A DNA stretch of 32,000 nucleotides, from assembly GCF_042660085.1 (NCBI RefSeq), contig NZ_JBHSTI010000008.1, positions 1,209,876 to 1,241,875 on the forward strand. The letters run 5' to 3'. Both the position numbers and the translations under genes were made by a program. The DNA is from Longivirga aurantiaca. Lineage in GTDB: Bacteria; Actinomycetota; Actinomycetes; S36-B12; CAIYMF01. The stretch's first letter is position 1. Every line of letters starts with the position of its first letter. Below, piece by piece: positions 17,251-29,984 of this stretch. A model generated the notes under the pieces. It saw nothing but the letters and a program-made list of their open reading frames with translations, ran no database searches and was not told where the DNA came from.

Positions 17251-17628
17251 ATGAAGCACCCCGTACGCGCTGCGATCGAGGCCCGTGACATCGACGCGCT
17301 CGTGGCGCTCCTCGCTGACGACATCGTGTTCAACAGCCCCGTGGCCTTCCACCCCTTCACCGGCCGGGCCACCGTCGCGGAGGTGCTGACCAACGCGATG
17401 GAGGTCTTCACCGACTTCGTCTACGTCGACGAGCTCGCCGGCGACGACACGCACGGCCTCGTCTTCACCGCCCGCGTCAACGGCCGAGCCGTTGAGGGGC
17501 TTGACCACCTCCGCTTCGACGAGGCCGGTCTCGTCTCCGAGTTCACGGTGATGGTGCGGCCGCTGTCCGGCGTCATCGCCCTTGCCGAGGCGATGGCCCC
17601 GCGGGTGGCCCACCTCGCGAAGGGCTGA
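17251..17628 (+). CDS. SnoaL-like / NTF2-fold protein
   Basis: 125 aa. [39 protein letters not shown]...[20 protein letters not shown] is the typical SnoaL_2/NTF2-like pattern. Confidence 0.7.
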
Positions 17629-17859
17629 TCACCCACGGGTGACGCCGCGGATGCACAGCGATCCTGGGCGGCGACGGCCTCAGCGGGGGACCGGACGAAG
17701 GCCGTCCTGGGAGAGGGGCGTCGGTGCCGCACCGGCCGTGAGCACCTCATCCCTGCAACGGCTCGGGATCCTGGAAGTCGCGCGCGACGTGGTGGTCGGG
17801 GGCCACACTCGAGGTGGCTCGTTGAGTCGCGGTCCCGTGATCGTCCCGAAGGAGTGCTC

Positions 17860-18807
17860 ATGATCAGACAGCCTGTGAAGGTGGCGGTCGTGCAACGGCC
17901 GCCCGTCCTGCTGGATCGAGACTCCACCATGAAGGCCGCTGTCGAGGCGGTGCACGAGGCCGCTGACGCCGGAGCCGGCCTGGTGGTCTTCCCCGAGACC
18001 TACATCCCGGGATACCCGGTCTGGATCTGGTCGTTGCGTCCCGGAGGCGACTTCGGGCTCAGCCAGGGCATCCATGCCCAGCTGCTGGCCAACAGCATCG
18101 ACCTGTCCACCGACGACCTCGCATCGCTGCAGCAGGTGGCGGCCGAGCGGAGCGTCGTCGTCGTCTGCGGAGTCCATGAGCGGGAGGGCTCGTTCAGCCG
18201 GGCGACGATCTACAACACGTTGGTCACCATCGATGCTGACGGCACGATTCTCAACCGGCACCGCAAGCTCGTGCCCACCAACCCGGAGCGGATGGTGTGG
18301 GGGCAGGGCGACGCCTCCGGGCTGCGCGTCGTCGACACGCCGTTCGGACGGCTGGGCGGCTTGATCTGCTGGGAGAACTACATGCCCCTGGCCCGGTACA
18401 CGTTGTACGCCGAGGGCATCCAGATCTACATCGCCTCCACCTGGGACAGCGGAGACGCCTGGCTCGCCTCCATGCGCCACATCGCTTCCGAGGGCCGCTG
18501 CTGGGTCATCGGATCCGGCTGCGCCCTCGCGACCCGTGACATACCCGAGAGCTTCCCGTCGCGAGAGATGCTCTTCGAGGGCCAGGACGACTGGCTCAAC
18601 CCGGGTGACTCGGTGATCGTCGCCCCCACTGGACACGTCGTTGCCGGACCGCTCCACCAGGAGTACGGGATCCTGTACGCCGACATCGACGTCGCCACGG
18701 CGAGCACCGAGCACCGCACCCTCGACGTGGCCGGGCACTACGGACGACCCGACATCTTCTCGCTCACGGTGGACCGCTCGCCGCAACTGCCCATTCATAT
18801 CCAGTAG
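17860..18807 (+). CDS. nitrilase (carbon-nitrogen hydrolase superfamily)
   Basis: Catalytic triad contexts: VVFPETYIPGYP (Glu), NRHRKLVPT (Lys), GGLICWENYMPLAR (Cys). ATG 17860 sits 5 nt after GAAGGAG; the track start 17854 is GTG. Confidence 0.9.
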   Translation: MIRQPVKVAVVQRPPVLLDRDSTMKAAVEAVHEAADAGAGLVVFPETYIPGYPVWIWSLRPGGDFGLSQGIHAQLLANSIDLSTDDLASLQQVAAERSVVVVCGVHEREGSFSRATIYNTLVTIDADGTILNRHRKLVPTNPERMVWGQGDASGLRVVDTPFGRLGGLICWENYMPLARYTLYAEGIQIYIASTWDSGDAWLASMRHIASEGRCWVIGSGCALATRDIPESFPSREMLFEGQDDWLNPGDSVIVAPTGHVVAGPLHQEYGILYADIDVATASTEHRTLDVAGHYGRPDIFSLTVDRSPQLPIHIQ

Positions 18808-18832
18808 AGCCGATCGGTCGACGGGCTGCCGG

Positions 18833-20095
18833 TCAGGCTCGCTCGAGGTCGGACAGCAGACGGGCTGCCACGGCGCGCAGGTCGTCACTCACCTGGAGCA
18901 GCGCGTCCTCGCCGCACGCGGGGTGCTGCTCGGCGGCGTACGTCGCGAGGTCCTCGAGCCGTTCGGCGAAGCGGATCCAGGCGGCACGACGGTGCGGGAG
19001 GAGGAAGCTCGCGCGGTAGGGGAGCTGGAAGTTGGCCCCCGCCGTGGCACCCGGATGCTCGGGTCCTACAGGCAGACGGGCGAGCAGCAGGCCGAGCGGC
19101 TTGATCGCCTTGAACATCAGGTCCACCGCGGAGTCGGCGAGCGTCGCCCGCTGCTCGGCAGTCTCGTGCCCGAACGCGAAGTACCGCGCGATCATCTGCA
19201 GCAGCAGCTCGTAGACCGCGTTGAACAGGTCCGAGCAGGCGCCCGTGGCCGGGTCCGTGATGAAGAAGTCCGGCTCGATCCCTTCGACCGCCCGCATGCC
19301 CGCCGCAAGGACCGGGTGCACCGGGTCGAACCCGGGGTCGGCCGCGGTCATGAGGAGGTACTCCTCGCGAACGGCGAGGAAGCGACCGAAGTGGGCGTCG
19401 CTCCAGTCGCCGGTAGCGCCCTCTCCCTGCTCGACGATGCGCTCGAGCGCGGCCTGCGCCTCCTTCAGGTTCGTGATCGGGCCCAGGCTCGGCCAGCCGA
19501 ACGCGGACTCGTCGGCCTGATGGAACCCCGGGCCGATGAAGAGCCGGTCCTCGCCGAGCTTGCTCGCGAGGTTCGCGAGACCTGCTGCGCACGACCTGTA
19601 GAGGTGCCCGACGGTCGCGAACTCCTGACCACGGGGCACGATCTCGTCCGCTCGCATCTGCTCGAGCGGCTCCCCAGCAGGCTCGAACCCCTCGGCGTCG
19701 GCGTGCTCCACGCCATCGGGACGCTCGAGGTAGACGAAGTGGTCCAGGGCACGCGTGCCGAACGGCAGCAGCCGCAGCTGCACGCCGGGCGGATACCCCT
19801 GTGCCTGGTGCGGGAGGTGCGGGCGGCTTACGAACGGTGCCGAGCCGACGGCGGCGAGAAGGTTCTGGACCACCGCCCAGTGCAGCATCTCCTCGCCAGC
19901 GATCCTGAGGATCACCGAGCGCCATCGCTCCACGGCTTCCGCCTGCGCGTCGTCGAGCCCGTCCTCGGCGGACTTCAAGCTGAATGCGGCGTAGAGGTAC
20001 TGGCACATGAGGGCGTGCTCGAGCTCGGCACCCTGCGAAAGCAGGTACGTGAGCTCCTTGCGGTTCTCGACCGTGATCTCGGGCAAAGCCTCCAC
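18833..20095 (-). CDS. ferritin-like domain protein, function unknown
   Basis: NRKELTYLLSQGAELEHALMCQYLYAAFSLK...ERWRSVILRIAGEEMLHWAVVQNLLAAVG matches my memory of the Ferritin-like (PF12902-type) N-terminal signature. Start uncertain: GTG 20095 or GTG 20146. The rest of the 655-aa track ORF is antisense to the LLM gene. Confidence 0.7.
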   Translation of the reverse strand: MEALPEITVENRKELTYLLSQGAELEHALMCQYLYAAFSLKSAEDGLDDAQAEAVERWRSVILRIAGEEMLHWAVVQNLLAAVGSAPFVSRPHLPHQAQGYPPGVQLRLLPFGTRALDHFVYLERPDGVEHADAEGFEPAGEPLEQMRADEIVPRGQEFATVGHLYRSCAAGLANLASKLGEDRLFIGPGFHQADESAFGWPSLGPITNLKEAQAALERIVEQGEGATGDWSDAHFGRFLAVREEYLLMTAADPGFDPVHPVLAAGMRAVEGIEPDFFITDPATGACSDLFNAVYELLLQMIARYFAFGHETAEQRATLADSAVDLMFKAIKPLGLLLARLPVGPEHPGATAGANFQLPYRASFLLPHRRAAWIRFAERLEDLATYAAEQHPACGEDALLQVSDDLRAVAARLLSDLERA

Positions 20096-20255
20096 GAGGC
20101 CGAAGGTAGACCCCTCGCCCAGCCCGCGGAAGGTAGTCGCGCGCACGACGCTTGCCAGCCGCGTGCGCGATCCGATGCGAGGTGCCGCGCTCGGACGTTC
20201 CTGATGCGCGACGGCCTCGACCGGCAGGCACGCCCGACGACCGGCGCGACCCGGT

Positions 20256-20274
20256 GCACTGCCACGGGCAGTGC
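20256..20274. promoter_or_regulatory. perfect 8-3-8 palindrome in the divergent ferritin-like/LLM intergenic region (candidate operator)
   Basis: gcactgcc-acg-ggcagtgc. It lies about 160 bp from the ferritin-like start and about 190 bp from the LLM start. Confidence 0.25.
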
Positions 20275-20464
20275 GCTGTGCGGATGTCGGTATCGAGCTC
20301 GCACGGCGGTCCAGGCCGAGAGGTCGCCGTGGCGTCGGCGTCGCGCCCGAGCCTCCCCTGTGCCGTCCCGGAGACCGCTCGGGGTGAGCAGGCGTTGGCT
20401 GCCGAGAGTGCCGGCGGTGTGGAACGATGCGGGCTTCGCGGTTGCGGTCTGGAGGTGCGGACCA

Positions 20465-21496
20465 GTGGTGGGAGCGGCCTCTGCAGACGTGCCCATCGGG
20501 ATCGGCTTCACGCCGTTCGAAGACCGCCTCGATGTCATCGAGCGTGTCACGCGGCACGCCGAGGAACGCGGCCTGGCGTTCGTCTCCGTCGCGGAGGCCA
20601 TGAGTCTGGCGGCACCGCTCGTGCTTGCCCGACTTGCGGCCGTCACGAGCCGGATCGGTCTGACAACAGGCGTGCTGTCGGTGTGGGGGCGTACGCCGGC
20701 CACCTTGGCCATGACCGCGGCGGAGCTGCAGCGGCAGTCGGACGGACGCTTCGTCCTCGGTCTGGGAGCCGGGACGGCCCCCATCGCCGAGGGCTTCCAC
20801 GGGAATCGATGGGAATCGCCGCTGGGACGCTTGCGCTCGACGTGCCTCGCCGTGTCAGCGCTGCTGCGCGGGGAGCGGCTTCCAGACCCTCCGAGCCACG
20901 CGCGACCGCTGGCGCTCGCCAAGCCGCCTGACACGAAGGTGCCGCTTGCGCTCGCCGCCATCACCGATCCCAGCATCCGACTTGCGGGCGAGCTTGCCGA
21001 CCAGTGGCTGCCCTTCCTGCTGCCACCTTCGGCGCTGGACCGAGGCGGAGAGCAGTTGAGGGCGTCCGCTGTTCGGCATGAGCGATCGACCGTGCCGACG
21101 GTGACGGCCGCTATCCCTGTCGCCATCGCGGAGGACGAGGCGACCGCATCGACCATCGCCGCCCGATGGCTCGTGACGTACTGCACGCGCATGGGGCCCG
21201 TCTATCCTCGCGTTCTGCGCGAGAACGGCTACGGCTCCGAGATCGACGCGCTGCTGGAGGCGAGCAGCGATCCTCGCACTCCCGTTCTGCCTGCCGCTGC
21301 CGAACGGCTGGCACGCGACGTGCTCGTCTTCGGCGCCCACGGCGACATGCGCGAGGTCCTCGCCCGCTGGCAGCAGCACGCCGACCAGATCACCCTGGTG
21401 GTTCCGTTCGCCAGCCAGCTCGACGATCTGCTGGTTCTCGTCGACCACGCGGTGACGCCGAGACCGCCCACGCGTCGCGGAGGTCTCTGCGGGTGA
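20465..21496 (+). CDS. LLM-class (luciferase-like) flavin/F420-dependent oxidoreductase
   Basis: VPIGIGFTPFEDRLDVIERVTRHAEERGLAFVSVAEAM...WGRTPATLAMTAAELQRQSDGRFVLGLGAG is the typical LLM TIM-barrel signature. GTG 20465 sits 9 nt after GGAGG. The upstream 600 codons of the 951-aa track ORF are antisense shadow. Confidence 0.8.
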   Translation: MVGAASADVPIGIGFTPFEDRLDVIERVTRHAEERGLAFVSVAEAMSLAAPLVLARLAAVTSRIGLTTGVLSVWGRTPATLAMTAAELQRQSDGRFVLGLGAGTAPIAEGFHGNRWESPLGRLRSTCLAVSALLRGERLPDPPSHARPLALAKPPDTKVPLALAAITDPSIRLAGELADQWLPFLLPPSALDRGGEQLRASAVRHERSTVPTVTAAIPVAIAEDEATASTIAARWLVTYCTRMGPVYPRVLRENGYGSEIDALLEASSDPRTPVLPAAAERLARDVLVFGAHGDMREVLARWQQHADQITLVVPFASQLDDLLVLVDHAVTPRPPTRRGGLCG

Positions 21497-21625
21497 GCCG
21501 CATCTGAGCTGCTCCTTGCTGCGTGTCGGCCGCGCGGGGACTGCACGAGCCTGGACGCGCCGGAGGCGTCCGCGATTCTCGGTGACACCTGCCCTTCCGC
21601 GGCCGTGCTGGAGGACGATGCAGGT

Positions 21626-22954
21626 GTGTGCGACACCTTTGCTGCCATGGCCGACGCCACGGCCGACGGGTCGGTGATCCTGGCCAAGAACAGCGACCGC
21701 GAGCCGAACGAGGCGCACGAGGTGATGCTCGTGCCCGCGGCCGAGCACGCGGACGGCGCGCGCCTGCGCTGCACCTACCTCGAGATCCCGCAGGTGCGCC
21801 GCACCCACGCCGTGCTGCTCGCCAAGCCGTACTGGATCTGGGGCGCCGAGATGGGCGCGAACGAGCACGGCGTCGTCATCGGCAACGAGGCGGTGTTCAC
21901 CAAGGTCCCGCACGAGGACGCCGACGGGCTCGTCGGCATGGACCTGCTGCGGCTCGGCCTCGAGCGGGCCGAGAGCGCCGAGGAGGCCGTGCAGGTCATC
22001 ACGTCCCTGCTCGAGGCGCACGGGCAGGGCGGAAGGTGCGGGCACACGTCCGACATGCGCTACGACAACGGGTTCCTCGTCGCCGATCCCCGCGAGGCGT
22101 GGGTGCTCGAGACCGCGGGACGCGAATGGGGCGCGCAGCGCGTGGCGACCACCCGCTCGATCTCCAACGCGATCACCCTCGGACGCGACGCCGACCTGGT
22201 GTCGAGCGGGCTGGTGAGTCGAGCCGTCGAGCGGGGCTGGTCGCGCAGTCCCACCCAGTTCGACTTCGGCCGCGACTACTCCGACTTCCTCTACACGCGC
22301 TTCAGCGACGCGAAGGCACGGCAGTGCCGCACGTCGGATCGTCTCCGGGAACAGAGGGGGCGCATCGACGTCGCCTCGGCGGTCGCCCTCCTGCGCGACC
22401 ACGGCGACGTCGGACCCGGCTGGTCGCCGGCGGGCCGCCTGCTCGGCCAGACGGTGTGCGCCCATGCGGGGTCCGGGCCGGTGCGCGTGAGCCAGTCGAC
22501 CGGCTCGTGGGTCTCCCACCTCGCCGCCGACGGCACCTTCACGCACTGGGTCACGGCAACGTCCGCGCCGTGCACCTCGGTCTTCAAGCCGGTGTGGTTC
22601 GACGGCGGGCCGCCCAGCACCGGCCCTCAGCCGCAGAGGCGGTACGACCGCAGCACCCTCTGGTGGCGGCACGAGGACCTGCACCGCGCCACCCTCGCCG
22701 ACTACCCGACCCTGCATCCGCTCTACGCGGACGAGATCCTCGCGCTCGAGGCACGCCTGCGTGACGAGGCGGCCACTGCCGCGACACCTGACCAGCGCGC
22801 CGACGTCTCGCGCTCGGCCTTCGCCGAGGCCGCCTCCGCCGAGGAGCGCTGGACAGCGTCCGTCCGTGCCCGCGCCCGTCGCGCGTCGCCCCCCGGGCTC
22901 TACGGCCGAGCGTGGCGAGGCTTCGACCGCGCGGCGTCCCGCCCTGTCCCGTGA
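21626..22954 (+). CDS. N-terminal-Cys Ntn hydrolase, peptidase C69/secernin-like
   Basis: Start GTG 21626 after GGAGGA gives M-CDTFAAM...DGSVILAKNSDREPNEAHEV. This is the N-terminal Cys nucleophile plus the (F/L)AKNSDR.PNE motif characteristic of C69/secernin-type Ntn hydrolases. Confidence 0.7.
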   Translation: MCDTFAAMADATADGSVILAKNSDREPNEAHEVMLVPAAEHADGARLRCTYLEIPQVRRTHAVLLAKPYWIWGAEMGANEHGVVIGNEAVFTKVPHEDADGLVGMDLLRLGLERAESAEEAVQVITSLLEAHGQGGRCGHTSDMRYDNGFLVADPREAWVLETAGREWGAQRVATTRSISNAITLGRDADLVSSGLVSRAVERGWSRSPTQFDFGRDYSDFLYTRFSDAKARQCRTSDRLREQRGRIDVASAVALLRDHGDVGPGWSPAGRLLGQTVCAHAGSGPVRVSQSTGSWVSHLAADGTFTHWVTATSAPCTSVFKPVWFDGGPPSTGPQPQRRYDRSTLWWRHEDLHRATLADYPTLHPLYADEILALEARLRDEAATAATPDQRADVSRSAFAEAASAEERWTASVRARARRASPPGLYGRAWRGFDRAASRPVP

Positions 22955-22985
22955 ACCGCCGCACCGACCCGCTGGGAGCGCCCCG

Positions 22986-24254
22986 ATGAGCACGCGCGAC
23001 GACTCTGACCGGCCGACCCGCGCCGAGGTCCTCGACCTGGCGGAGCGCTACGCGTGCCCGAACCGGGTTCGCACGCTCAGGGCCCTCGGTGTCGACCTCG
23101 TCGTCGGGGCGCGTGAGGGGTACCGGCTCTGGGACCTCGACGGACGCGAGTTCCTCGACCTTCACCTCAACGGCGGCGTGTTCAACCTGGGGCACCGCAA
23201 CCACGAGCTGGTGGCCACGCTCGTCGACGCGCTGCAGACGCTGGACATCGGCAACCACCACTTCCCGAGCGTCGAGCGGGCCCTGCTGGCCCGCGACCTC
23301 GTCGAGCTGACTCCGGGGATGAGGTACGCCGTGTTCGCCAGCGGCGGCGGCGAGGCGGTCGAGGTCGCGCTCAAGAGCGCCCGTCGCGCCACCGGTCGAC
23401 GACGCATCGTGTCCGTGAGCGGCGCCTACCACGGTCACACGGGGCTCGCGCTCGCGGCGGGCGATGAGCGCGCCGCCGCGTCCTTCCTGTCCGAGGGGGC
23501 GCCCGGCGAGTTCGCCCACGTGGGCTTCGACGACCTCGCCGCGATCGAGCGCGAGCTGGCGTCGGGCGACGTCGCGGCCGTCGTGCTGGAGACCGTCCCC
23601 GCCACGATCGGCTTCCCGCTCCCGTCGCCGGGCTACCTCGCCGGCGTGCGGGACCTCTGCGACGCAGCCGGGGCCCTCTACGTCGCCGACGAGGTGCAGA
23701 CGGGGCTCGGCCGCACGGGGGAGCTCTGGGGCGTGCAGCGCGAGGGCGTCGTCCCCGACGTGCTGGTGTGCGGCAAGGGGCTCTCCGGCGGGCTGTATCC
23801 CATCGCCGCCGCTCTGCTCTCCGAACGTGCGGGCGCCTGGCTCGAGGAGGACGGCTGGGCGCACATCTCGACGTTCGGCGGCGCTGAGGTCGGGTGCCGC
23901 GTGGCGCGCGAGGTGCTCGCCATCACCGACCACCCGGCGACCCGCGGCCATGTGCGCGGGCTCGTCGACCGGTTCGCCGACGGGCTGGCGGGCATCCGCG
24001 ACCGATACCCCGACCGGCTGGTCGAGGTGCGCCAGACGGGCCTGGTGATCGGCCTGAGGCTCTCGCACCCTCAGGGCGGCATGCTGCTCACCAAGGCGCT
24101 CTACGACCGTGGGGTGTGGGCGATGTTCGCCGGCTTCGATCCCTCCGTCCTGCAGGTCAAGCCGGGCCTGCTGCTCGACGCCGCGACGGCCGAGCTCGCC
24201 CTGGAACGGCTGGACGACGCCGTCTCGTCCCTGCCTGCGGGGACCGCGGCGTGA
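22986..24254 (+). CDS. class III PLP-dependent aminotransferase-fold enzyme (omega-amine/putrescine aminotransferase-like)
   Basis: GYRLWDLDGREFLDLHLNGGVFNLGHRNHELV, SGGGEAVEVALKSAR, YVADEVQTGLGRTGELWG and VLVCGKGLSGGLYP (PLP Lys) are the class III aminotransferase motifs. ATG 22986 follows GGGAG. Confidence 0.85.
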   Translation: MSTRDDSDRPTRAEVLDLAERYACPNRVRTLRALGVDLVVGAREGYRLWDLDGREFLDLHLNGGVFNLGHRNHELVATLVDALQTLDIGNHHFPSVERALLARDLVELTPGMRYAVFASGGGEAVEVALKSARRATGRRRIVSVSGAYHGHTGLALAAGDERAAASFLSEGAPGEFAHVGFDDLAAIERELASGDVAAVVLETVPATIGFPLPSPGYLAGVRDLCDAAGALYVADEVQTGLGRTGELWGVQREGVVPDVLVCGKGLSGGLYPIAAALLSERAGAWLEEDGWAHISTFGGAEVGCRVAREVLAITDHPATRGHVRGLVDRFADGLAGIRDRYPDRLVEVRQTGLVIGLRLSHPQGGMLLTKALYDRGVWAMFAGFDPSVLQVKPGLLLDAATAELALERLDDAVSSLPAGTAA

Positions 24255-25195
24255 GAGGGGCGCCCGCGGAGGCCGAGGAGGTGCTGCGCTCCCTGGAGAA
24301 CCGGCTCGATCCGGCGCAGCCCGAGAAGGCGGGCGGGCTCCAGGTGCTCGGCTACGGCGAGGTGTCGGCGTGCCTGCGCCTCGACGGTCTCGACGGGTGG
24401 ATCGTCAAGCGGATGTCGGGATTCGCCGACGAGCCGGCTGCGCGCGCGTACGCCTCGCTCGTGGACGACTACCTCGTCAGGCTCACCGCGCGCGGCGTGA
24501 GCGTCGTCGAGACGCACGCCCTGCTGGTGCCCCGCCCCGGCCGACCGCCTGTCGTCGCCCTGCTGCAGCCGATGCTGCCCAGCGAGTCCCTCGGGCACCG
24601 GCTGCTCGTGCGTGCTGACGACGCCGTTGTCGCCGACGCCGTCCACCGGGTGCTCGCGACCGTCCTCGCCCTCCACCTCGCCGGTACGGAGGACGCCGAC
24701 GGGCTCGAGGCCGCCGTCGACGGGCAGCTGTCGAACTGGTCGTTCGCGGAGGCCGAGGCGCCCGTCCTCGTCGACGTGGGAACGCCGTTCATGCGGCGGG
24801 CCGGCCGGCACCTGGTCGACATCGCGTGGCTCGAGCGGCCCATCCCGCCGGGGCTGCGCGCGTACTACCACCGAAGGGCCCTCGTGGGCGCCTACCTCGA
24901 CGACTACTACGACCCCCGCACGGTCGCGCTGGACCTGCTGGGCAACTTCCACAAGGAGGGCCGGCCCGACCGGATCCCGCTCGGCATCGACATCGTGAAC
25001 CGATGGCTGGTCGACCACCGCGACGCTCTCGGCGAGCGGGCGCCGTTGAGCGGGGTCGAGGTCGAGTCCTACTACCGCTCCGATGCCGACCTGCTCGCCC
25101 TGTACCTCCGGCTCCGGCGCGCTGACCGGTTCCTGCGCACCCGGGTCCTCCGCCGGCCCTACGACTTCATCCTCCCCGGCCACGTCCGACGCTGA
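24251..25195 (+). CDS. uncharacterised protein with protein-kinase-like motifs
   Basis: GTG 24251 overlaps the aminotransferase stop (GTGA). Motifs in kinase order: LGYGEVSACL (Gly-rich loop), WIVKRM (Lys), AVDGQLSNW (D-x4-N), VLVDVGTPF (DxG). No family could be assigned with certainty; possibly a DUF6206-type protein. Confidence 0.55.
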   Translation: MRGAPAEAEEVLRSLENRLDPAQPEKAGGLQVLGYGEVSACLRLDGLDGWIVKRMSGFADEPAARAYASLVDDYLVRLTARGVSVVETHALLVPRPGRPPVVALLQPMLPSESLGHRLLVRADDAVVADAVHRVLATVLALHLAGTEDADGLEAAVDGQLSNWSFAEAEAPVLVDVGTPFMRRAGRHLVDIAWLERPIPPGLRAYYHRRALVGAYLDDYYDPRTVALDLLGNFHKEGRPDRIPLGIDIVNRWLVDHRDALGERAPLSGVEVESYYRSDADLLALYLRLRRADRFLRTRVLRRPYDFILPGHVRR

Positions 25196-25337: not shown

Positions 25338-25985
25338 ATGGAACTGGTCTACGTCAATCCTGAGAAGTGCATCGGCTGCCTCCAGTGCGAGCTCGCCTGC
25401 GCGGTCGAGCACTCGACATCCCGCAACGTCGCCTCCGCATGGGCGGAGCAGCCCGTCCCACGGACGCGGATCCACGTCGTGCCCGGCCCGGTGGCCGGAT
25501 CCGCGTATCCGGCCCGGTGCCGTCACTGCGACCCGGCGCCCTGCGTGCAGGTCTGCCCCACCGGGTCCATGGCACGCGACGAGAGCCACGACGTGGTCGT
25601 CGTCGACGTCGAGACGTGCATCGACTGCGCCATGTGCGCGATGGTCTGCCCGTTCGATGCGCTGACCTACCACCCCGTGGCGGCCTCGGACGGTGAGCGC
25701 ACCGTCGCGGTGAAGTGCGACGGCTGCATCGAGCGGCTGCGTCGGGGCGAGCAGCCGGCGTGCGTCGAGGCCTGCAAGGTGGGCGCGCTCGTGTACGGCG
25801 ACATCAACGATCTGGCTGCGCAGGGTCGGCTGCGCCAGTCCGGACTGGTCCTCGCCGCGGTGACGGCGGCCGAGGCCGAGGAGGACGCGCGTAGTGGGGG
25901 GCCGGTCGCCGCGTGGCGCGCCTGGGGCGCGTCGGCGGCGAACGTCGTCGCAGCAGCAGCACGAGCCGAAGGAGCCGCACGATGA
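25338..25985 (+). CDS. cooF: CooF-type ferredoxin with four [4Fe-4S] binding motifs
   Basis: CIGCLQCELAC, CRHCDPAPCVQVCP, CIDCAMCAMVCP and CDGCIERLRRGEQPACVEAC. The stop overlaps the cooS start (ATGA at 25982-25985). Confidence 0.85.
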   Translation: MELVYVNPEKCIGCLQCELACAVEHSTSRNVASAWAEQPVPRTRIHVVPGPVAGSAYPARCRHCDPAPCVQVCPTGSMARDESHDVVVVDVETCIDCAMCAMVCPFDALTYHPVAASDGERTVAVKCDGCIERLRRGEQPACVEACKVGALVYGDINDLAAQGRLRQSGLVLAAVTAAEAEEDARSGGPVAAWRAWGASAANVVAAAARAEGAAR

Positions 25986-27910
25986 GCACGATGCAGCGCA
26001 GGGACCCGCGGACGATGAGCATCGCCTCGGACGCCCAGCAGATGATCGAGGTCGCGAGGTCCGAAGGCATCGAGACCGTGTGGGACCGCCTGGAGGCCCA
26101 GCAGCCGCAGTGCGGCTTCTGCGTCCTGGGCGTGAGCTGCCGCAACTGCGCCATGGGGCCGTGCCGAGTCGACCCGTTCGGCGCGGGCCCGCAGAAGGGT
26201 GTGTGCGGGGCCGGAGCCGACGTGATCGTCGCCCGCAACCTCGGCCGCACCATCGCCGCCGGCTCCTCGTCGCACTCCGACCACGGGCGCGACATCCTCG
26301 AGGTGTTCGCCGCGACGGCCCACGGAGAGACGACGGGCTACCGCATCCAGGACGTGGGCAAGCTGACGCGGCTGGCGGCCGAGCTCGGAATCCCGACCGA
26401 GGACCGGACGACGACACAGGTCGCCGTCGACCTAGCGGACCGGCTCATGGATGACTTCGGCACCCGGCGCGCATCGTTGTCCTTCGTGGAGAGGTCGCCG
26501 AAGCCCCGCCAGGAGCTGTGGGACCGGCTCGGCGTGACACCGCGCGGCATCGACCGGGAGAACGTGGAGATGCTGCACCGCACTCACATGGGCGTGGACA
26601 ACGACCCCGTCAACATCCTGCTGCACGGGCTCCGCACGAGCCTGGCGGACGGCTGGGGCGGATCGATGATCGCCACAGAGCTCTCCGACATCATGTTCGG
26701 CACCCCGTCGCCGGTGATGTCGACGGTGAACCTGGGCACGCTGAAGCCCGGCTGGGTGAACATCGCCCTCCACGGGCACAACCCGATGCTCTCCGACGTG
26801 ATCGTGCAGGCGGCGGAGGACCCGGCGCTGGTCGACCGCGCACGGGAGCTCGGTGCCGAAGGCATCAACCTCGTGGGCCTGTGCTGCACCGGGAACGAGC
26901 TGCTCATGCGGCGCGGCGTCCCGATGGCGGGCAACCACCTCATGCAGGAGCTGGCCATCATGACCGGCGCCCTGGAGGCGATGGTCGTCGACTACCAGTG
27001 CATCATGCCGTCCGTCACGGACGTGGCGCGGTGCTACCACACGGTCGTCATCTCGACCGCGGACAAGGCCAGGTTCCCGGGCGCGGTCCACGTGTCCTTC
27101 GACCCTGGCCGGGGCCTGGAGATCGGGCGGGACATCGTGTCCCGGGGCGTCGAGGCGTTCGCCAACCGCAACCCCGACCGGGTCCGCATCCCCGACGAGC
27201 CCGTGGAGATCATGGCCGGCTTCTCGGTCGAAGCCATCCTCGGCGCGCTCGGCGGCACGCCGGCGCCTCTGGTCGAGGCGATCGCCGATGGACGCATCCG
27301 CGGGGCCGTGGGAGTCGTGGGCTGCAACAACCCCAAGATCACCCAGGACTACGGACACGTCACCCTCACCCGTCGGCTGATCGAGAACGACATCCTCGTC
27401 CTCGTCACCGGGTGCGCAGCGGTCGCCAACGGAAAGGCCGGTCAGATGGTGCCCGCGGCTGCGTCCCTGGCCGGGCCCGGCCTGCGCGCCACCTGCGAGG
27501 CGCTGGGGATCCCGCCCGTCCTGCACATGGGCTCGTGCGTCGACAACACCCGCATCCTGGTGCTGGCCGCGGCGCTCGCAGACCACCTGGGCGTCGACAT
27601 GAGCCAGCTGCCGCTGGCCGGTGCCGCCCCCGAGTGGTACTCGGAGAAGGCCGTGGCCATCGGTGCGTACGTGGTGGCGAGCGGCATCACGACGGTGCTC
27701 GGCGTCGACCCGCCCATCCTCGGGAGCGCAGCCGTCACGGGGCTGCTCACGAGCGGGCTCGACGACGTGGTCGGTGCCAAGTTCGCGGTCGAGGCGGACC
27801 CGGAGAAGGCCGCGGTGCTGATCCGCCGCCACATCGAGGGGAAGCGTGCCGCGCTCGGTCTCCCTGCGCACGACCTCGACCAGATCAGGGAGCCGGTGGC
27901 GACGGCATGA
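25982..27910 (+). CDS. cooS: anaerobic-type Ni,Fe carbon monoxide dehydrogenase catalytic subunit
   Basis: 642 aa. B/D-cluster region QCGFCVLGVSCRNCAMGPCR...GVCGA. Acid-base His in SSHSDHGRD. C-cluster ligand contexts are all present: ALHGHNP, GLCCTGNE, DYQCIMPS, VVGCNNP, VTGCAA, MGSCVDN. Conserved Lys in WYSEKAVAIG. Confidence 0.93.
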   Translation: MSTMQRRDPRTMSIASDAQQMIEVARSEGIETVWDRLEAQQPQCGFCVLGVSCRNCAMGPCRVDPFGAGPQKGVCGAGADVIVARNLGRTIAAGSSSHSDHGRDILEVFAATAHGETTGYRIQDVGKLTRLAAELGIPTEDRTTTQVAVDLADRLMDDFGTRRASLSFVERSPKPRQELWDRLGVTPRGIDRENVEMLHRTHMGVDNDPVNILLHGLRTSLADGWGGSMIATELSDIMFGTPSPVMSTVNLGTLKPGWVNIALHGHNPMLSDVIVQAAEDPALVDRARELGAEGINLVGLCCTGNELLMRRGVPMAGNHLMQELAIMTGALEAMVVDYQCIMPSVTDVARCYHTVVISTADKARFPGAVHVSFDPGRGLEIGRDIVSRGVEAFANRNPDRVRIPDEPVEIMAGFSVEAILGALGGTPAPLVEAIADGRIRGAVGVVGCNNPKITQDYGHVTLTRRLIENDILVLVTGCAAVANGKAGQMVPAAASLAGPGLRATCEALGIPPVLHMGSCVDNTRILVLAAALADHLGVDMSQLPLAGAAPEWYSEKAVAIGAYVVASGITTVLGVDPPILGSAAVTGLLTSGLDDVVGAKFAVEADPEKAAVLIRRHIEGKRAALGLPAHDLDQIREPVATA

Positions 27911-28737
27911 CCGAAATGCGGCCAGCGCCACTGCGCGTCGTGGTCACCGGCAAGGGCGGCGTCGGCAAGACGACCCTCACCGCTCTCGTCGGGCGACAGC
28001 TCGCGCGGTCGGGTCAGAGGGTGCTCCTGGTGGACGCCGACGAGCAGATGAACCTCGGCCGCACCCTCGGGCTGCCGCCGGCCGCATGCCGCGCCGTCGT
28101 GCCGCTCTCGCGCCAGGACGACTACATAGCGGAGACGGTCGGCGCGCGGCCCGGCGAGAGCGGCGCCATGCTCCGGCTCAACCCCGACACCTCCGACGCC
28201 GTCGCGCGGTTCGGGATCGATGGACCCGACGGCGTCCGGCTCCTCGTCATGGGCGGGCTGCGCGCCGCGGGCGGCGGTTGCCTGTGCCCCGAGCACTCGT
28301 TGCTCAGCGCGGTCGTCGCAGGAGTCGGCCGTGAGCACGCGGACGTCGTGCTGATGGACACCCACGCCGGCGTCGAGCATTTCGGCCGGGCCCTTGCCCG
28401 CGGGTTCGACAGGGCCCTGGTCGTGACCGACCCGTCGGCGAACGGCGTCGCCGTCGCCCTCGAGACCGCACGCCTGGCGAGGGATCTCGGGATCCCGCGC
28501 ATCATGCTCGTGGTCAACCGTGCCCGCTCGTCCGCCGACGGGGATCGGGTGGAACGGCTCCTCGCGGACGAGGGCGGATTCCGTTTCGAGTCGGTGACCG
28601 TGCTGCCCTGGGACGACTCCGTGCTCGACTCGGACCCGTCCGTCGGCGCCCTCGTCGACGGTGCGGGCCGCCTGGCCGCGTCCACGGCCCCACTGCTCGC
28701 CGGGTGGCTCACGCCCAGGAGGGAGCTCGTGACATGA
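27907..28737 (+). CDS. cooC: CODH nickel-insertion accessory ATPase
   Basis: P-loop VVVTGKGGVGKTT, metal-binding CxC motif GGCLCPEH, MinD/ParA-type fold. The ATG overlaps the cooS stop (ATGA 27907-27910). Confidence 0.88.
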   Translation: MTEMRPAPLRVVVTGKGGVGKTTLTALVGRQLARSGQRVLLVDADEQMNLGRTLGLPPAACRAVVPLSRQDDYIAETVGARPGESGAMLRLNPDTSDAVARFGIDGPDGVRLLVMGGLRAAGGGCLCPEHSLLSAVVAGVGREHADVVLMDTHAGVEHFGRALARGFDRALVVTDPSANGVAVALETARLARDLGIPRIMLVVNRARSSADGDRVERLLADEGGFRFESVTVLPWDDSVLDSDPSVGALVDGAGRLAASTAPLLAGWLTPRRELVT

Positions 28738-29984
28738 GGACCGTCATCATCGGTACCGGACCCGCGGGGATCACCGCGGCCGAGGTGCTCCGGCGGCACG
28801 ATCCCGACGCCGACCTCGTCCTCGTGACGACGGAGCACGAACCCCCGTACTCGCCGCCGGCGATGGCCGACCACTTCCTGACCGGGCGCCGTGCGGGCCT
28901 GTTCTGGAAGGGCGAGGACGTCTGCGAGCGATGGGGCGCCACAGAGTTGCGCGGGGTCCAGGCGGTGTCGGTCGACACGAGGGCGCACGAGGTCGCGCTG
29001 TCGGACGGCCGATCGCTCGACTACGACTCGCTGCTGATCGCGTCGGGCAGCAGGCTGCACGCGTCGCTTCCCGGCAACGAGCTCAGCGGCATCCACGACT
29101 TCAAGTCGCTGGACGCTGCACGGCGGATCCTCGGCGGCGTCCGGGACGGGAGGGTACGACGCGTCCTCGTGGTCGGGTCGGGGTTCATCGGCGTCGAGCT
29201 CGCCCTGCTGCTGAGCGATCTCGGCGTCCACGTGACCGTCCTGGGCCGGCGAGGCTGGGTGATGCCGCGGGTGCTCGACCCCGACACCGCCGCCGTCGCC
29301 GAGCGCGCGATCCGCGCTCGCGGTGTCCACCTCATGCTGGGGGTGCCCGCTTCCGCCTTCGTCGGCGACGAGACGGTCGAGGGTGTAGAGCTGGCCGACG
29401 GAACGACCCTGCGCGCGGATGCGTTCGTGGCCGCCACGGGCGTCAAGCCGCACATCGAGTTCCTCCACGACTCGGACGTCGCGACCGACTGGGGCGTCCT
29501 GGTCGACGATCGGATGCGCACCACAGCGCCCGACGTCTACGCAGCGGGGGACGTGGCCGAGGCATCCGACCGGATGACCGGCAATCGATACGTGCATGCG
29601 ATCTTCCCCAACGCGGTCGCGCAGGCCACGGTCGCGGCTCTCAACATCCTCGACCGGGACACGGCCTACGCCGGAGCAGAGTCGATGAACAGCCTCAAGC
29701 ACCTCGGGATCCCGCTGGTGTCCATCGGTGACATGGAGGGCGAGGACCGGCTGCAGTGGCGGTCCGGGGACGCGCTGCGGACGGTGTGGCTGACCGACGG
29801 CCGGATCGTGGGCGCACGGCTCGCGGGAGAGATCTCCGGTGCCGGCGTCTACCGATCCCTGATGCTGCGGCGCGACGACGTGCGACGGTTCGGGCGGCGA
29901 CTCGTCGAACCCTCGTTCGGCAGCGGGGATCTCGCGCTGACCGCCCTCATGCCCGACCTTGCCCGGAGCGCCCGGGTGGCCTGA
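28734..29984 (+). CDS. FAD-dependent NAD(P) oxidoreductase, pyridine nucleotide-disulfide oxidoreductase fold (CODH-associated FNOR type)
   Basis: MRTVIIGTGPAGITAAE (FAD GxGxxG), VLVVGSGFIGVELA (NAD(P) GxGxxG), VYAAGDVA. The ATG overlaps the cooC stop (ATGA 28734-28737). Confidence 0.8.
   Translation: MRTVIIGTGPAGITAAEVLRRHDPDADLVLVTTEHEPPYSPPAMADHFLTGRRAGLFWKGEDVCERWGATELRGVQAVSVDTRAHEVALSDGRSLDYDSLLIASGSRLHASLPGNELSGIHDFKSLDAARRILGGVRDGRVRRVLVVGSGFIGVELALLLSDLGVHVTVLGRRGWVMPRVLDPDTAAVAERAIRARGVHLMLGVPASAFVGDETVEGVELADGTTLRADAFVAATGVKPHIEFLHDSDVATDWGVLVDDRMRTTAPDVYAAGDVAEASDRMTGNRYVHAIFPNAVAQATVAALNILDRDTAYAGAESMNSLKHLGIPLVSIGDMEGEDRLQWRSGDALRTVWLTDGRIVGARLAGEISGAGVYRSLMLRRDDVRRFGRRLVEPSFGSGDLALTALMPDLARSARVA

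Follow-up and report, generated by a model that had tools for sequence, protein, structure and literature searches.

Phospho-lyases with a class III aminotransferase fold have been documented (PMC8154272). In the AGXT2L-type representatives (ethanolamine kinase/ETNPPL, hydroxylysine kinase/PHYKPL and the bacterial fused PRK06148 proteins), a kinase is coupled to the class III enzyme, as in the locus described here, but that kinase is of the APH family. The same two-step logic of kinase and PLP enzyme is common to this locus and to the RMM/AAUM pathway of Mycobacterium and Rhodococcus, which relies on an APH-type (S)-1-amino-2-propanol kinase (6ef6) and a class III 'aminotransferase', a candidate aminopropanol-phosphate phospho-lyase. 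The RMM/AAUM system has shell proteins, an aldehyde dehydrogenase, a permease and a short-chain dehydrogenase, all of which the present operon lacks; a non-shell 'permease-AT-kinase' form exists too. For the RMM organelle, a conversion of aminoacetone to propionyl-CoA has been proposed (PMC8156839).

The operon lies in a 32,000-nucleotide stretch of the Longivirga aurantiaca genome, hereafter the window, and its features are collected in Table 1. On balance we lean towards a reading in which it combines an amino-alcohol kinase with an O-phospho-amino-alcohol phospho-lyase, the amidase supplying the substrate, in a short catabolic or salvage route. Reading of the sequence and of the translations upheld the arrangement described initially, three co-directional genes with a short gap and then an overlap. 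The start of gene 1 was placed at 21605 in the list of open reading frames and at 21626 by comparison with homologues; the latter is taken as the true start because the start codon immediately precedes a Cys codon in 40 of 41 homologues. On the + strand between 21300 and 25500 no terminator-like site was found, the promoter/terminator scan being uninformative at 72% G+C, and a search upstream of the operon for a riboswitch or other RNA returned none.

Table 1. Coordinates of the operon features, counted from the first nucleotide of the window.
Feature	Position	Strand	Description
Gene 1	21626..22954	+	442 aa; start GTG; predicted cytoplasmic Cys-Ntn amide hydrolase, C69/secernin type
Gene 2	22986..24254	+	422 aa; start ATG; class III PLP-fold; candidate O-phospho-amino-alcohol phospho-lyase
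Gene 3	24251..25195	+	314 aa; start GTG; DUF6206, predicted small-molecule (amino alcohol) kinase
GGAGGA, Shine-Dalgarno-like	21610..21615	+	10 nt before the gene 1 GTG; read from sequence
Spacer between genes 1 and 2	22955..22985	+	31 nt; contains GGGAG upstream of the gene 2 ATG; read from sequence
GTGA stop/start overlap of genes 2 and 3	24251..24254	+	4 nt; read from sequence

The product of gene 1 had been called a hydrolase with an N-terminal Cys, and the start/Cys adjacency, the Pfam matches and the fold all bear this out. It matches Peptidase_C69 (4.6e-12, 46 bits for a cut-off of 23) and, as second family, the C45 family AAT (1.4e-8). The N-terminus reads M-C-D-T-F ... AKNSDREPNE, with Cys directly after the GTG-encoded residue as in C69 cysteine dipeptidases and animal secernins, and Cys2 is the predicted N-terminal nucleophile after Met removal. 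All of 30 sequences compared share C2, D3, T4, K21, N22, S23, R25 and N28, and the motif following the Cys is secernin-like. An AF2 model (pLDDT 88) gave as top Foldseek match the dipeptidase 5iau of L. farciminis, a PepD-like C69 enzyme (E 9.5e-18), the likeness extending over the full-length fold (TM 0.71). The Ntn alpha-beta-beta-alpha fold and the N-terminal Cys thus assign the protein to the Peptidase C69/Cys-Ntn hydrolases. It falls outside the C69 dipeptidase equivalog NF033678 of NCBIfam (45.3 bits, cut-off 250), and it differs from the C69 cysteine dipeptidases in sequence (~15% identity) and in operon context, which points to an amide formed from an amine and not to a dipeptide. The animal secernins are close structural cousins of this hydrolase.

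The family of gene 2 (AT) adjoins DUF6206 in 72 of 76 loci, which together represent at least 8 phyla (Actinomycetota, Thermodesulfobacteriota, Fidelibacterota, Myxococcota, Binatota, Hydrogenedentota, Pseudomonadota and Lentisphaerota), and in 19/20 unbiased Actinomycetota loci collected independently with the DUF6206 Pfam model. The pairing of these two genes is obligate. The hydrolase, though often present, is an optional accessory and not part of the core. Its gene lies beside the pair in 49 of the 76 loci, so that co-localisation of all three families does recur, and an Ntn amidase is often attached to the DUF6206 module in this way, unlike in RMM/AAUM. The three-gene unit originally proposed thus holds for the AT and DUF6206 genes; as a core member the hydrolase did not stand.

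Under another reading, the hydrolase stands beside the pair by chance or in certain lineages only and does something unrelated, for instance as a dipeptidase, so that genes 2 and 3 alone form the functional unit. We regard this as possible, though doubtful. It would agree with the adjacency of the hydrolase in just 2 of the 20 unbiased Actinomycetota loci, with its absence from 22 of the 26 DUF6206-positive genomes among 401 Actinomycetota, and with distant homologues that stand alone in genomes devoid of the AT-DUF6206 pair, which count against an amidase-fed route. The secernin-like homologues of DUF6206-negative genomes have neither an AT nor a kinase nearby and are for that reason uninformative on the module. 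Against a chance association, the 49 adjacent loci span five phyla and four arrangements, and one inherited gene order would hardly account for upstream, divergent and downstream placements. When the locus itself lacked the hydrolase, the gene was encoded elsewhere in 4 of 5 such genomes.

No transporter, regulator or dehydrogenase emerged as a fourth partner of the module, the commonest Pfam family occurring 6 times among the 127 nearest neighbours. The absence of a conserved aldehyde dehydrogenase, transporter or regulator beside the module is unusual for a catabolic route and weighs against that reading. The LLM oxidoreductase gene upstream, suggested initially as a further member, was discarded, being missing from the flanks of the trio even in the same-genus genomes (G004, G024) and in other close loci; ferritin-like, CN-hydrolase and cooF/cooS genes were likewise absent from these flanks. 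A literature search found no paper describing the three-gene module.

Gene 2 encodes a class III aminotransferase-fold protein (Aminotran_3, PF00202, 4e-69, 233.7 bits) in which the PLP-binding residues equivalent to GabT K268, D239, Q242 and T297 are all present. The carboxylate-binding set is lost, R398 being replaced by Q, E211 by T and R141 by H, with an additional His-His motif, and Q/T/H occupy these positions in 39-42 of 42 sequences. Gene 2 thereby departs from the 2-oxoglutarate/pyruvate-dependent class III transaminases of the PatA, ArgD and GabT types, defined by Arg398, Glu211 and Arg/Lys141. Its placement relative to characterised transaminase subfamilies was inside none of them, every NCBIfam match being far below its cut-off. 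The resemblance to putrescine aminotransferase noticed at first holds at the level of the fold and goes no further: PatA/YgjG is the closest sequence match of solved structure (190 bits) and falls within an unresolved group adjoining the gene 2 clade, but it retains R398 and E211, both missing from gene 2, which scores 215 against the 612-bit cut-off of the PatA model. The same three positions are also replaced in kinase-fused or kinase-adjacent AGXT2L-like proteins, by K/S-C/V-N instead of Q/T/H; these proteins form a separate class III branch, the outgroup in our trees.

Elsewhere in the genome there is an RMM/AAUM microcompartment locus (permease, AT, ALDH, BMC shell genes and APH kinase), and a comparison of its kinase with the aminopropanol kinase of known structure, 6ef6, gives E 6e-92. 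The AT of this locus is 51% identical to gene 2, within the 51-55% found for RMM/AAUM enzymes of the subfamily, and the link between the two is a new observation. In the phylogenetic tree, 42 DUF6206-linked and 15 APK-linked enzymes formed one clade (SH-aLRT 100), with PatA, ArgD, GabT and AGXT2L-like enzymes outside, and the APK-linked enzymes were nested inside the DUF6206-linked ones (AU p 0.034). Two kinase families therefore alternate as partner of one PLP-enzyme subfamily, and on this tree gene 2 has a common ancestor with the enzyme whose partner is the characterised aminopropanol kinase. The DUF6206 module is spread over many phyla; the APK-linked branch, as sampled, is actinomycete. 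By clade and signature, gene 2 belongs to the RMM/APK-linked candidate phospho-lyase subfamily; its adjacent partner is a DUF6206 protein, and no APK homologue was found in the locus. The loss of the carboxylate-binding residues and the clustering with aminopropanol-kinase-linked RMM enzymes make the phospho-lyase paradigm, put forward in the original prediction, the best fit, and gene 2 is most likely not a transaminase but a candidate phospho-lyase. To our knowledge, no enzyme of the gene 2/RMM clade has been biochemically shown to be a phospho-lyase, which counts against this assignment.

The same succession of kinase and PLP-dependent elimination might act on a larger hydroxylated amine, for example an amino sugar, a sphingoid base or a derivative of a hydroxylated amino acid, which the Ntn hydrolase would release from its N-acyl form. 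This we judge rather unlikely. The nearest structural neighbours of the DUF6206 protein do include the sugar kinase NahK and WaaP/Kdo kinases, relatives of the Cys-Ntn hydrolase include ceramidase-like and acyl-amide hydrolases, and the aminopropanol system already present in the genome argues for another substrate here. Opposed to this, the active-site signature (G50, HH, G112, H141, T211, Q398 and K400) is identical in gene 2 and in the RMM-locus AT, K400 being a trait of the gene 2 subclade that matches the aminopropanol-linked enzymes, and the conserved surroundings include no gene for sugar transport or processing.

We find it improbable that the operon is biosynthetic, with a small phospho-amine metabolite as its product. 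In that case gene 2, as a true aminotransferase, would make an amine that is then phosphorylated and/or acylated, the Ntn protein serving as a C45-type acyltransferase. The best sequence matches of gene 2 are indeed transaminases (PatA, ArgD, PigE), the founder of the C45 family is an acyltransferase, and the missing downstream catabolic genes would suit a self-contained unit. However, the residues binding the keto-acid/amino-acid co-substrate are lost in gene 2, its closest relatives reside in catabolic microcompartment loci next to aldehyde dehydrogenase, and the Ntn fold matches a hydrolytic C69 dipeptidase across its full length.

The kinase-like motifs pointed out in the third protein proved to belong to a kinase fold. 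Gene 3 is a member of DUF6206 (PF19709, 2e-18, 66.9 bits for a gathering threshold of 30.4), a family of 685 clusters at 50% identity among 1.84 billion representatives, for which a literature search on 'DUF6206' found no paper. Its AF2 model (pLDDT 91.5, pTM 0.89) matched many kinases in Foldseek with probability about 1.0, and in VIA 50 of the 50 listed chains were kinases, with Z 9-11 across 190-230 residues; all top matches in both were protein-kinase-like kinases. The Gly-rich loop G34-x-G36-E37, the beta-3 K53, D157...N162 and the metal-binding D175 follow the canonical order on the expected secondary-structure elements and vary little or not at all among 98 sequences (G36, E37, K53, D157, N162 and D175 being strictly invariant), so that the predicted bilobal fold and the motif order both place the protein among the protein-kinase-like (PKL) enzymes. 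Whereas the RMM/AAUM kinase is an APH protein, gene 3 represents a different and very divergent family: it has no match to Pfam APH, its likeness to 6ef6 (Z 9.9) is at fold level only, and a PDB sequence search with DUF6206 gave no meaningful homologue. The structural matches also comprised amicoumacin kinase (Z 10.7) and NahK; the likeness of DUF6206 to Bud32, Rio and WaaP equals or exceeds that to amino-alcohol kinases, which counts against an amino-alcohol substrate. The model nevertheless suggests that gene 3 is probably an ATP-dependent small-molecule kinase with an amino alcohol as substrate class. That DUF6206 would instead be a protein kinase or a regulatory pseudo-partner controlling or modifying the PLP enzyme is very improbable: Bud32 is the top VIA match (Z 11.1) and a large share of the structural matches are Rio kinases and protein kinases of eukaryote type, but a biochemically characterised small-molecule kinase replaces DUF6206 in the derived clade, the protein is minimal, without extra domains or fused forms, and enzymes of successive steps typically show such a strict 1:1 pairing in operons. 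Among longer DUF6206 proteins no fusion was found, eight representatives having N-terminal extensions without a Pfam domain; a single BKACE-DUF6206 chimera seems to result from two genes called as one.

In the kinase and phospho-lyase route that we favour, the gene 1 amidase would optionally cleave an N-acyl or aminoacyl conjugate to liberate the amino alcohol, and the DUF6206 kinase would phosphorylate its hydroxyl with ATP. Gene 2 would then form an external aldimine with the amine and eliminate phosphate, and hydrolysis of the enamine/imine would release an aldehyde, ammonium and phosphate, an EC 4.2.3.2-like activity. The leading substrate candidates would be ethanolamine or a 1-amino-2-propanol-like compound. 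Since two further kinase/class III pairs are encoded in the genome, the RMM/AAUM one and an AGXT2L-type kinase/phospho-lyase-like pair (C8:2184986-2187333), the substrate here is probably not aminopropanol itself. A diamine, also envisaged at first, is unlikely because the kinase requires a hydroxyl group. Taken together, the co-localisation, the kinase fold and the phospho-lyase paradigm of the initial module reading were retained; the LLM gene, the hydrolase as core member and the diamine were not.

More tentatively, and with some doubt on our part, DUF6206 and its PLP partner could represent an ancestral pan-prokaryotic, B12-independent breakdown of amino alcohols of the ethanolamine/aminopropanol type, from which the RMM signature enzyme was recruited later by a kinase swap, with the secernin-like hydrolase as an amino-alcohol amidase. 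If true, this would tell for the first time on what class of physiological substrates the secernin/C69-like family acts. The module as read here would provide a function for DUF6206, a domain of unknown function, and one for a large group mis-annotated as 'aminotransferase'. It would also explain the origin of the RMM/AAUM microcompartment signature enzyme and imply a B12- and oxygen-independent use of amino alcohols as nitrogen/carbon source in streamlined freshwater actinobacteria, sulfate reducers, Fidelibacterota and others. As regards ethanolamine, a search of the Longivirga genome for EutB gave no hit. Among the 401 Actinomycetota, the 18 EutB-positive and 26 DUF6206-positive genomes showed zero overlap, which is not significant because chance would give no more than about 1.2 shared genomes. 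In each of two genera, one species has EutB and another has DUF6206, an observation that is suggestive only.

Translation and direct reading of the sequence confirmed the organization first described for the trio, with three genes on the plus strand, a 31-nt gap between genes 1 and 2 and a GTGA overlap between genes 2 and 3. Shine-Dalgarno-like purine runs precede genes 1 and 2. A scan of the three proteins against NCBIfam brought no model to its cut-off. The window has a G+C content of about 72% and belongs to an actinobacterial assembly of 3.67 Mb in 71 contigs. Downstream, the cooF-like/CODH cluster starts 142 nt past gene 3 with no terminator predicted in between; this neighbourhood is not kept in relatives. 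Upstream, minus-strand genes lie divergent from the LLM oxidoreductase gene, and none of these upstream genes is linked to the trio elsewhere.

Coordinates of the features discussed (window positions, or positions on contig C8 of the same genome, G000)
Feature	Position	Strand	Description
Gene 1 (Ntn)	21626-22954	+	GTG then Cys, 442 aa; Pfam Peptidase_C69 (and C45)
Gene 2 (AT)	22986-24254	+	422 aa; Pfam Aminotran_3
Gene 3 (K)	24251-25195	+	314 aa; Pfam DUF6206
Upstream genes	17251-21496		SnoaL-like gene, carbon-nitrogen hydrolase and ferritin-like gene (minus strand); divergent LLM oxidoreductase
Carbon-nitrogen hydrolase	17854-18807	-	
LLM oxidoreductase	20465-21496		
Downstream cluster	25338-29984		cooF-like 4Fe-4S protein, Ni-CODH/prismane-family protein (586 bits), pyridine-nucleotide-disulphide oxidoreductase
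Gene 2 paralogue	C8:853396-854607		51% identical to gene 2
Locus L120, outside the window	C8:850001-859600		Complete RMM/AAUM-type microcompartment locus: acetamidase/formamidase-family gene, amino-acid permease, class III AT, aldehyde dehydrogenase, BMC shell genes, unknown gene, APH kinase orthologous to 6ef6
Locus L094, outside the window	C8:2184986-2187333		APH-like kinase beside AGXT2L-like (PRK06148-type) enzyme

To study the conservation of this grouping, a profile was built from 22 DUF6206 homologues, which led to the recovery of 80 loci (contigs, one genome per species) whose neighbours were assigned by tblastn and ORF clustering. DUF6206 had the AT gene as its neighbour in 72 of 76 loci, and the Ntn gene lay inside the locus in 49 of 76. 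The arrangements included AT>K> (23 loci), AT>K>Ntn> (18), Ntn< AT>K> (15) and Ntn>AT>K> (6), the last being that of the window (> and < denote gene orientation). DUF6206 loci were found in Actinomycetota, Thermodesulfobacteriota, Fidelibacterota, Myxococcota, Binatota, Hydrogenedentota, Pseudomonadota and Lentisphaerota, with an adjacent Ntn gene in five of these eight phyla. To avoid a bias toward close relatives, 401 Actinomycetota genomes were searched with the Pfam DUF6206 model, which detected the family in 26. Twenty of these loci were fetched, and 19 carried an adjacent AT gene, in either order, encoding a protein 40–50% identical to gene 2; at the remaining locus the contig ends. An Ntn gene was adjacent in only 2 of the 20. 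Carriers of the pair include a cultivable species, Nocardioides taihuensis CGMCC 4.7318 (locus L034). Ntn homologues were encoded elsewhere in four of five genomes whose DUF6206 locus is without one, and more distant homologues also stand alone in genomes devoid of the AT-DUF6206 pair. Among the 127 nearest flanking genes scanned with Pfam, no family was seen more than six times, and no dehydrogenase was linked to the module. Comparison of same-genus genomes indicated that only the three genes are common to them, the LLM, ferritin-like, nitrilase-like and CODH genes not being shared. On these adjacency counts and this comparison, the core of the module is the AT-DUF6206 pair, which the Ntn hydrolase often accompanies as a mobile accessory. 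The original prediction of a three-gene unit thus holds for the pair, and for the hydrolase as an optional member; the LLM oxidoreductase, which it was suggested might belong to the unit, is not part of it.

Kinase-like motifs had been noticed in the third protein. Its AF2 model was confident (pLDDT 91.5, pTM 0.89), and the top matches in Foldseek and in an exhaustive VIA search were all protein-kinase-like kinases, which argues for the predicted fold. VIA Z scores were 11.1 for Bud32, 10.7 for both amicoumacin kinase and a putative APH, and 9.9 for the aminopropanol kinase 6ef6; NahK, WaaP, Rio and the choline kinase LicA were also matched, and the ESM Atlas gave Kdo/WaaP kinases (TM 0.52–0.58). 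Ten residues (G36, E37, K53, R54, D157, Q159, N162, D175, T178 and P179) do not vary across 98 DUF6206 sequences, down to about 30% identity, and map where the loop, strand-3, catalytic-loop and DFG-like residues would be expected. The family is of moderate size (685 clusters at 50% identity) and nearly always consists of stand-alone proteins of about 310 aa. In a single 392-aa protein of the representative library (P0135), a truncated DUF6206 is combined with half of a beta-keto acid cleavage enzyme (BKACE) domain; this is probably a merged gene call, and BKACE is a possible neighbour of DUF6206 in some lineage.

The closest solved relatives of gene 2 are PatA, PigE and ArgD. In class III transaminases, R398 with its Glu211 switch (GabT numbering) holds the carboxylate group of the co-substrate, be it a keto acid or an amino acid. 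Alignment of the gene 2 family with E. coli GabT, PatA and ArgD revealed that the equivalents of K268, D239, Q242, T297, H139 and E206 are kept, whereas R398 is replaced by Q, E211 by T and R141 by H. Position 50 is an invariant Gly in the family, which also has a His-His motif at about positions 78–79. Since both carboxylate-binding residues are replaced, an ordinary transamination cycle is unlikely for gene 2. The same three residues are likewise lost in the kinase-fused or kinase-adjacent AGXT2L-like proteins of the genus, but their replacements are K, S/C and V/N.

Whole-genome tblastn identified a gene 2 paralogue on C8 which is surrounded by an amino-acid permease, an aldehyde dehydrogenase, BMC shell genes and an APH-family kinase matching PDB 6ef6 ('microcompartment-associated aminopropanol kinase', APK) with an E value of 6e-92. 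This is an RMM/AAUM locus, a type whose signature enzyme is an aminotransferase (PMC4207490) and for which conversion of aminoacetone to propionyl-CoA has been proposed, as credited in PMC8156839 to Mallette and Kimber (2018). The active-site signature of this RMM enzyme is exactly that of gene 2, K400 included. We fetched 20 actinomycete loci around APK orthologues, including 12 RMM loci with shell genes and 4 shell-less permease-AT-kinase loci, and a gene 2-type AT was found in 16/16 of these. A maximum-likelihood tree was computed from 71 sequences, with AGXT2L-like proteins as outgroup. In it, 42 DUF6206-linked and 15 APK-linked enzymes formed a single clade (SH-aLRT 100, stem 0.67) that excluded PatA, ArgD, GabT, nine other G000 paralogues and the outgroup. 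Within this clade the APK-linked enzymes are a monophyletic group (100) that falls inside the DUF6206-linked radiation, where they share a 29-row subclade (100) with the gene 2 protein. Constraining the DUF6206-linked rows to one clade cost 60 log-likelihood units (AU p 0.034), although this group was chosen with the tree already in view. Therefore, two kinase families alternate as partner of one PLP-enzyme subfamily. One of them, APK, has a known amino-alcohol substrate, and this alternation makes the best available case for DUF6206 as a probable amino-alcohol kinase and for gene 2 as an enzyme that would act on the phosphorylated product.

Work of the 1970s on Pseudomonas and Erwinia described amino-alcohol kinases acting together with phospho-lyases, and such activities have also been described in animals, for ETNPPL and PHYKPL. 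Phospho-lyases do exist within class III (PMC8154272). In the proposed route, the Ntn enzyme, where present, would hydrolyse an amide conjugate to a free amino alcohol, DUF6206 would phosphorylate it, and gene 2 would catalyse PLP-dependent 1,2-elimination of the phospho-ester to yield an aldehyde, ammonium and phosphate. The L094 pair is the third kinase/class III pair of G000, and occurs as a fused 1,019-aa form in several same-genus genomes. As G000 also has the RMM system and this AGXT2L-like/APH pair, the specificity of the window module probably differs from theirs. Ethanolamine would be an attractive substrate, since EutB was not found in G000. None of the 401 Actinomycetota genomes has both EutB and DUF6206, a complementary pattern that is statistically uninformative. 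In genera g129 and g135, one species has EutB and another the DUF6206 pair (G249/G176 and G316/G436, respectively).

Our literature search found no paper mentioning DUF6206. The module may be classed with the kinase plus candidate class III phospho-lyase type, from which its new kinase family and its additional amidase set it apart. New in this analysis are the RMM paralogue in the same genome, the signature common to both enzymes, the nesting of the APK-linked enzymes and the unbiased estimate of the hydrolase as optional.

As for the hydrolase itself, the best match of the gene 1 model (pLDDT 88) was a full-length one to the L. farciminis C69 cysteine dipeptidase (E 9.5e-18, TM 0.71), followed by bile-salt hydrolases, penicillin V acylases and isopenicillin N acyltransferase. 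Cys directly follows the start codon in 40 of 41 homologues, and the N-terminal 30 residues are near-constant across phyla. In long-read MAGs (L007, L012, L013, L016-L018, L025, L029, L051) the Ntn gene is broken into at least two frames, as is the AT gene in some cases; this may reflect assembly indel error or accessory-gene decay. A Peptidase_M28 gene lies directly 3' of the Ntn gene in Fidelibacterota and unclassified bacterial MAGs (L049, L052, L070, L074); M28 matched 5 of the 127 flanking genes, and its presence might point to an amine derived from a peptide-like conjugate.
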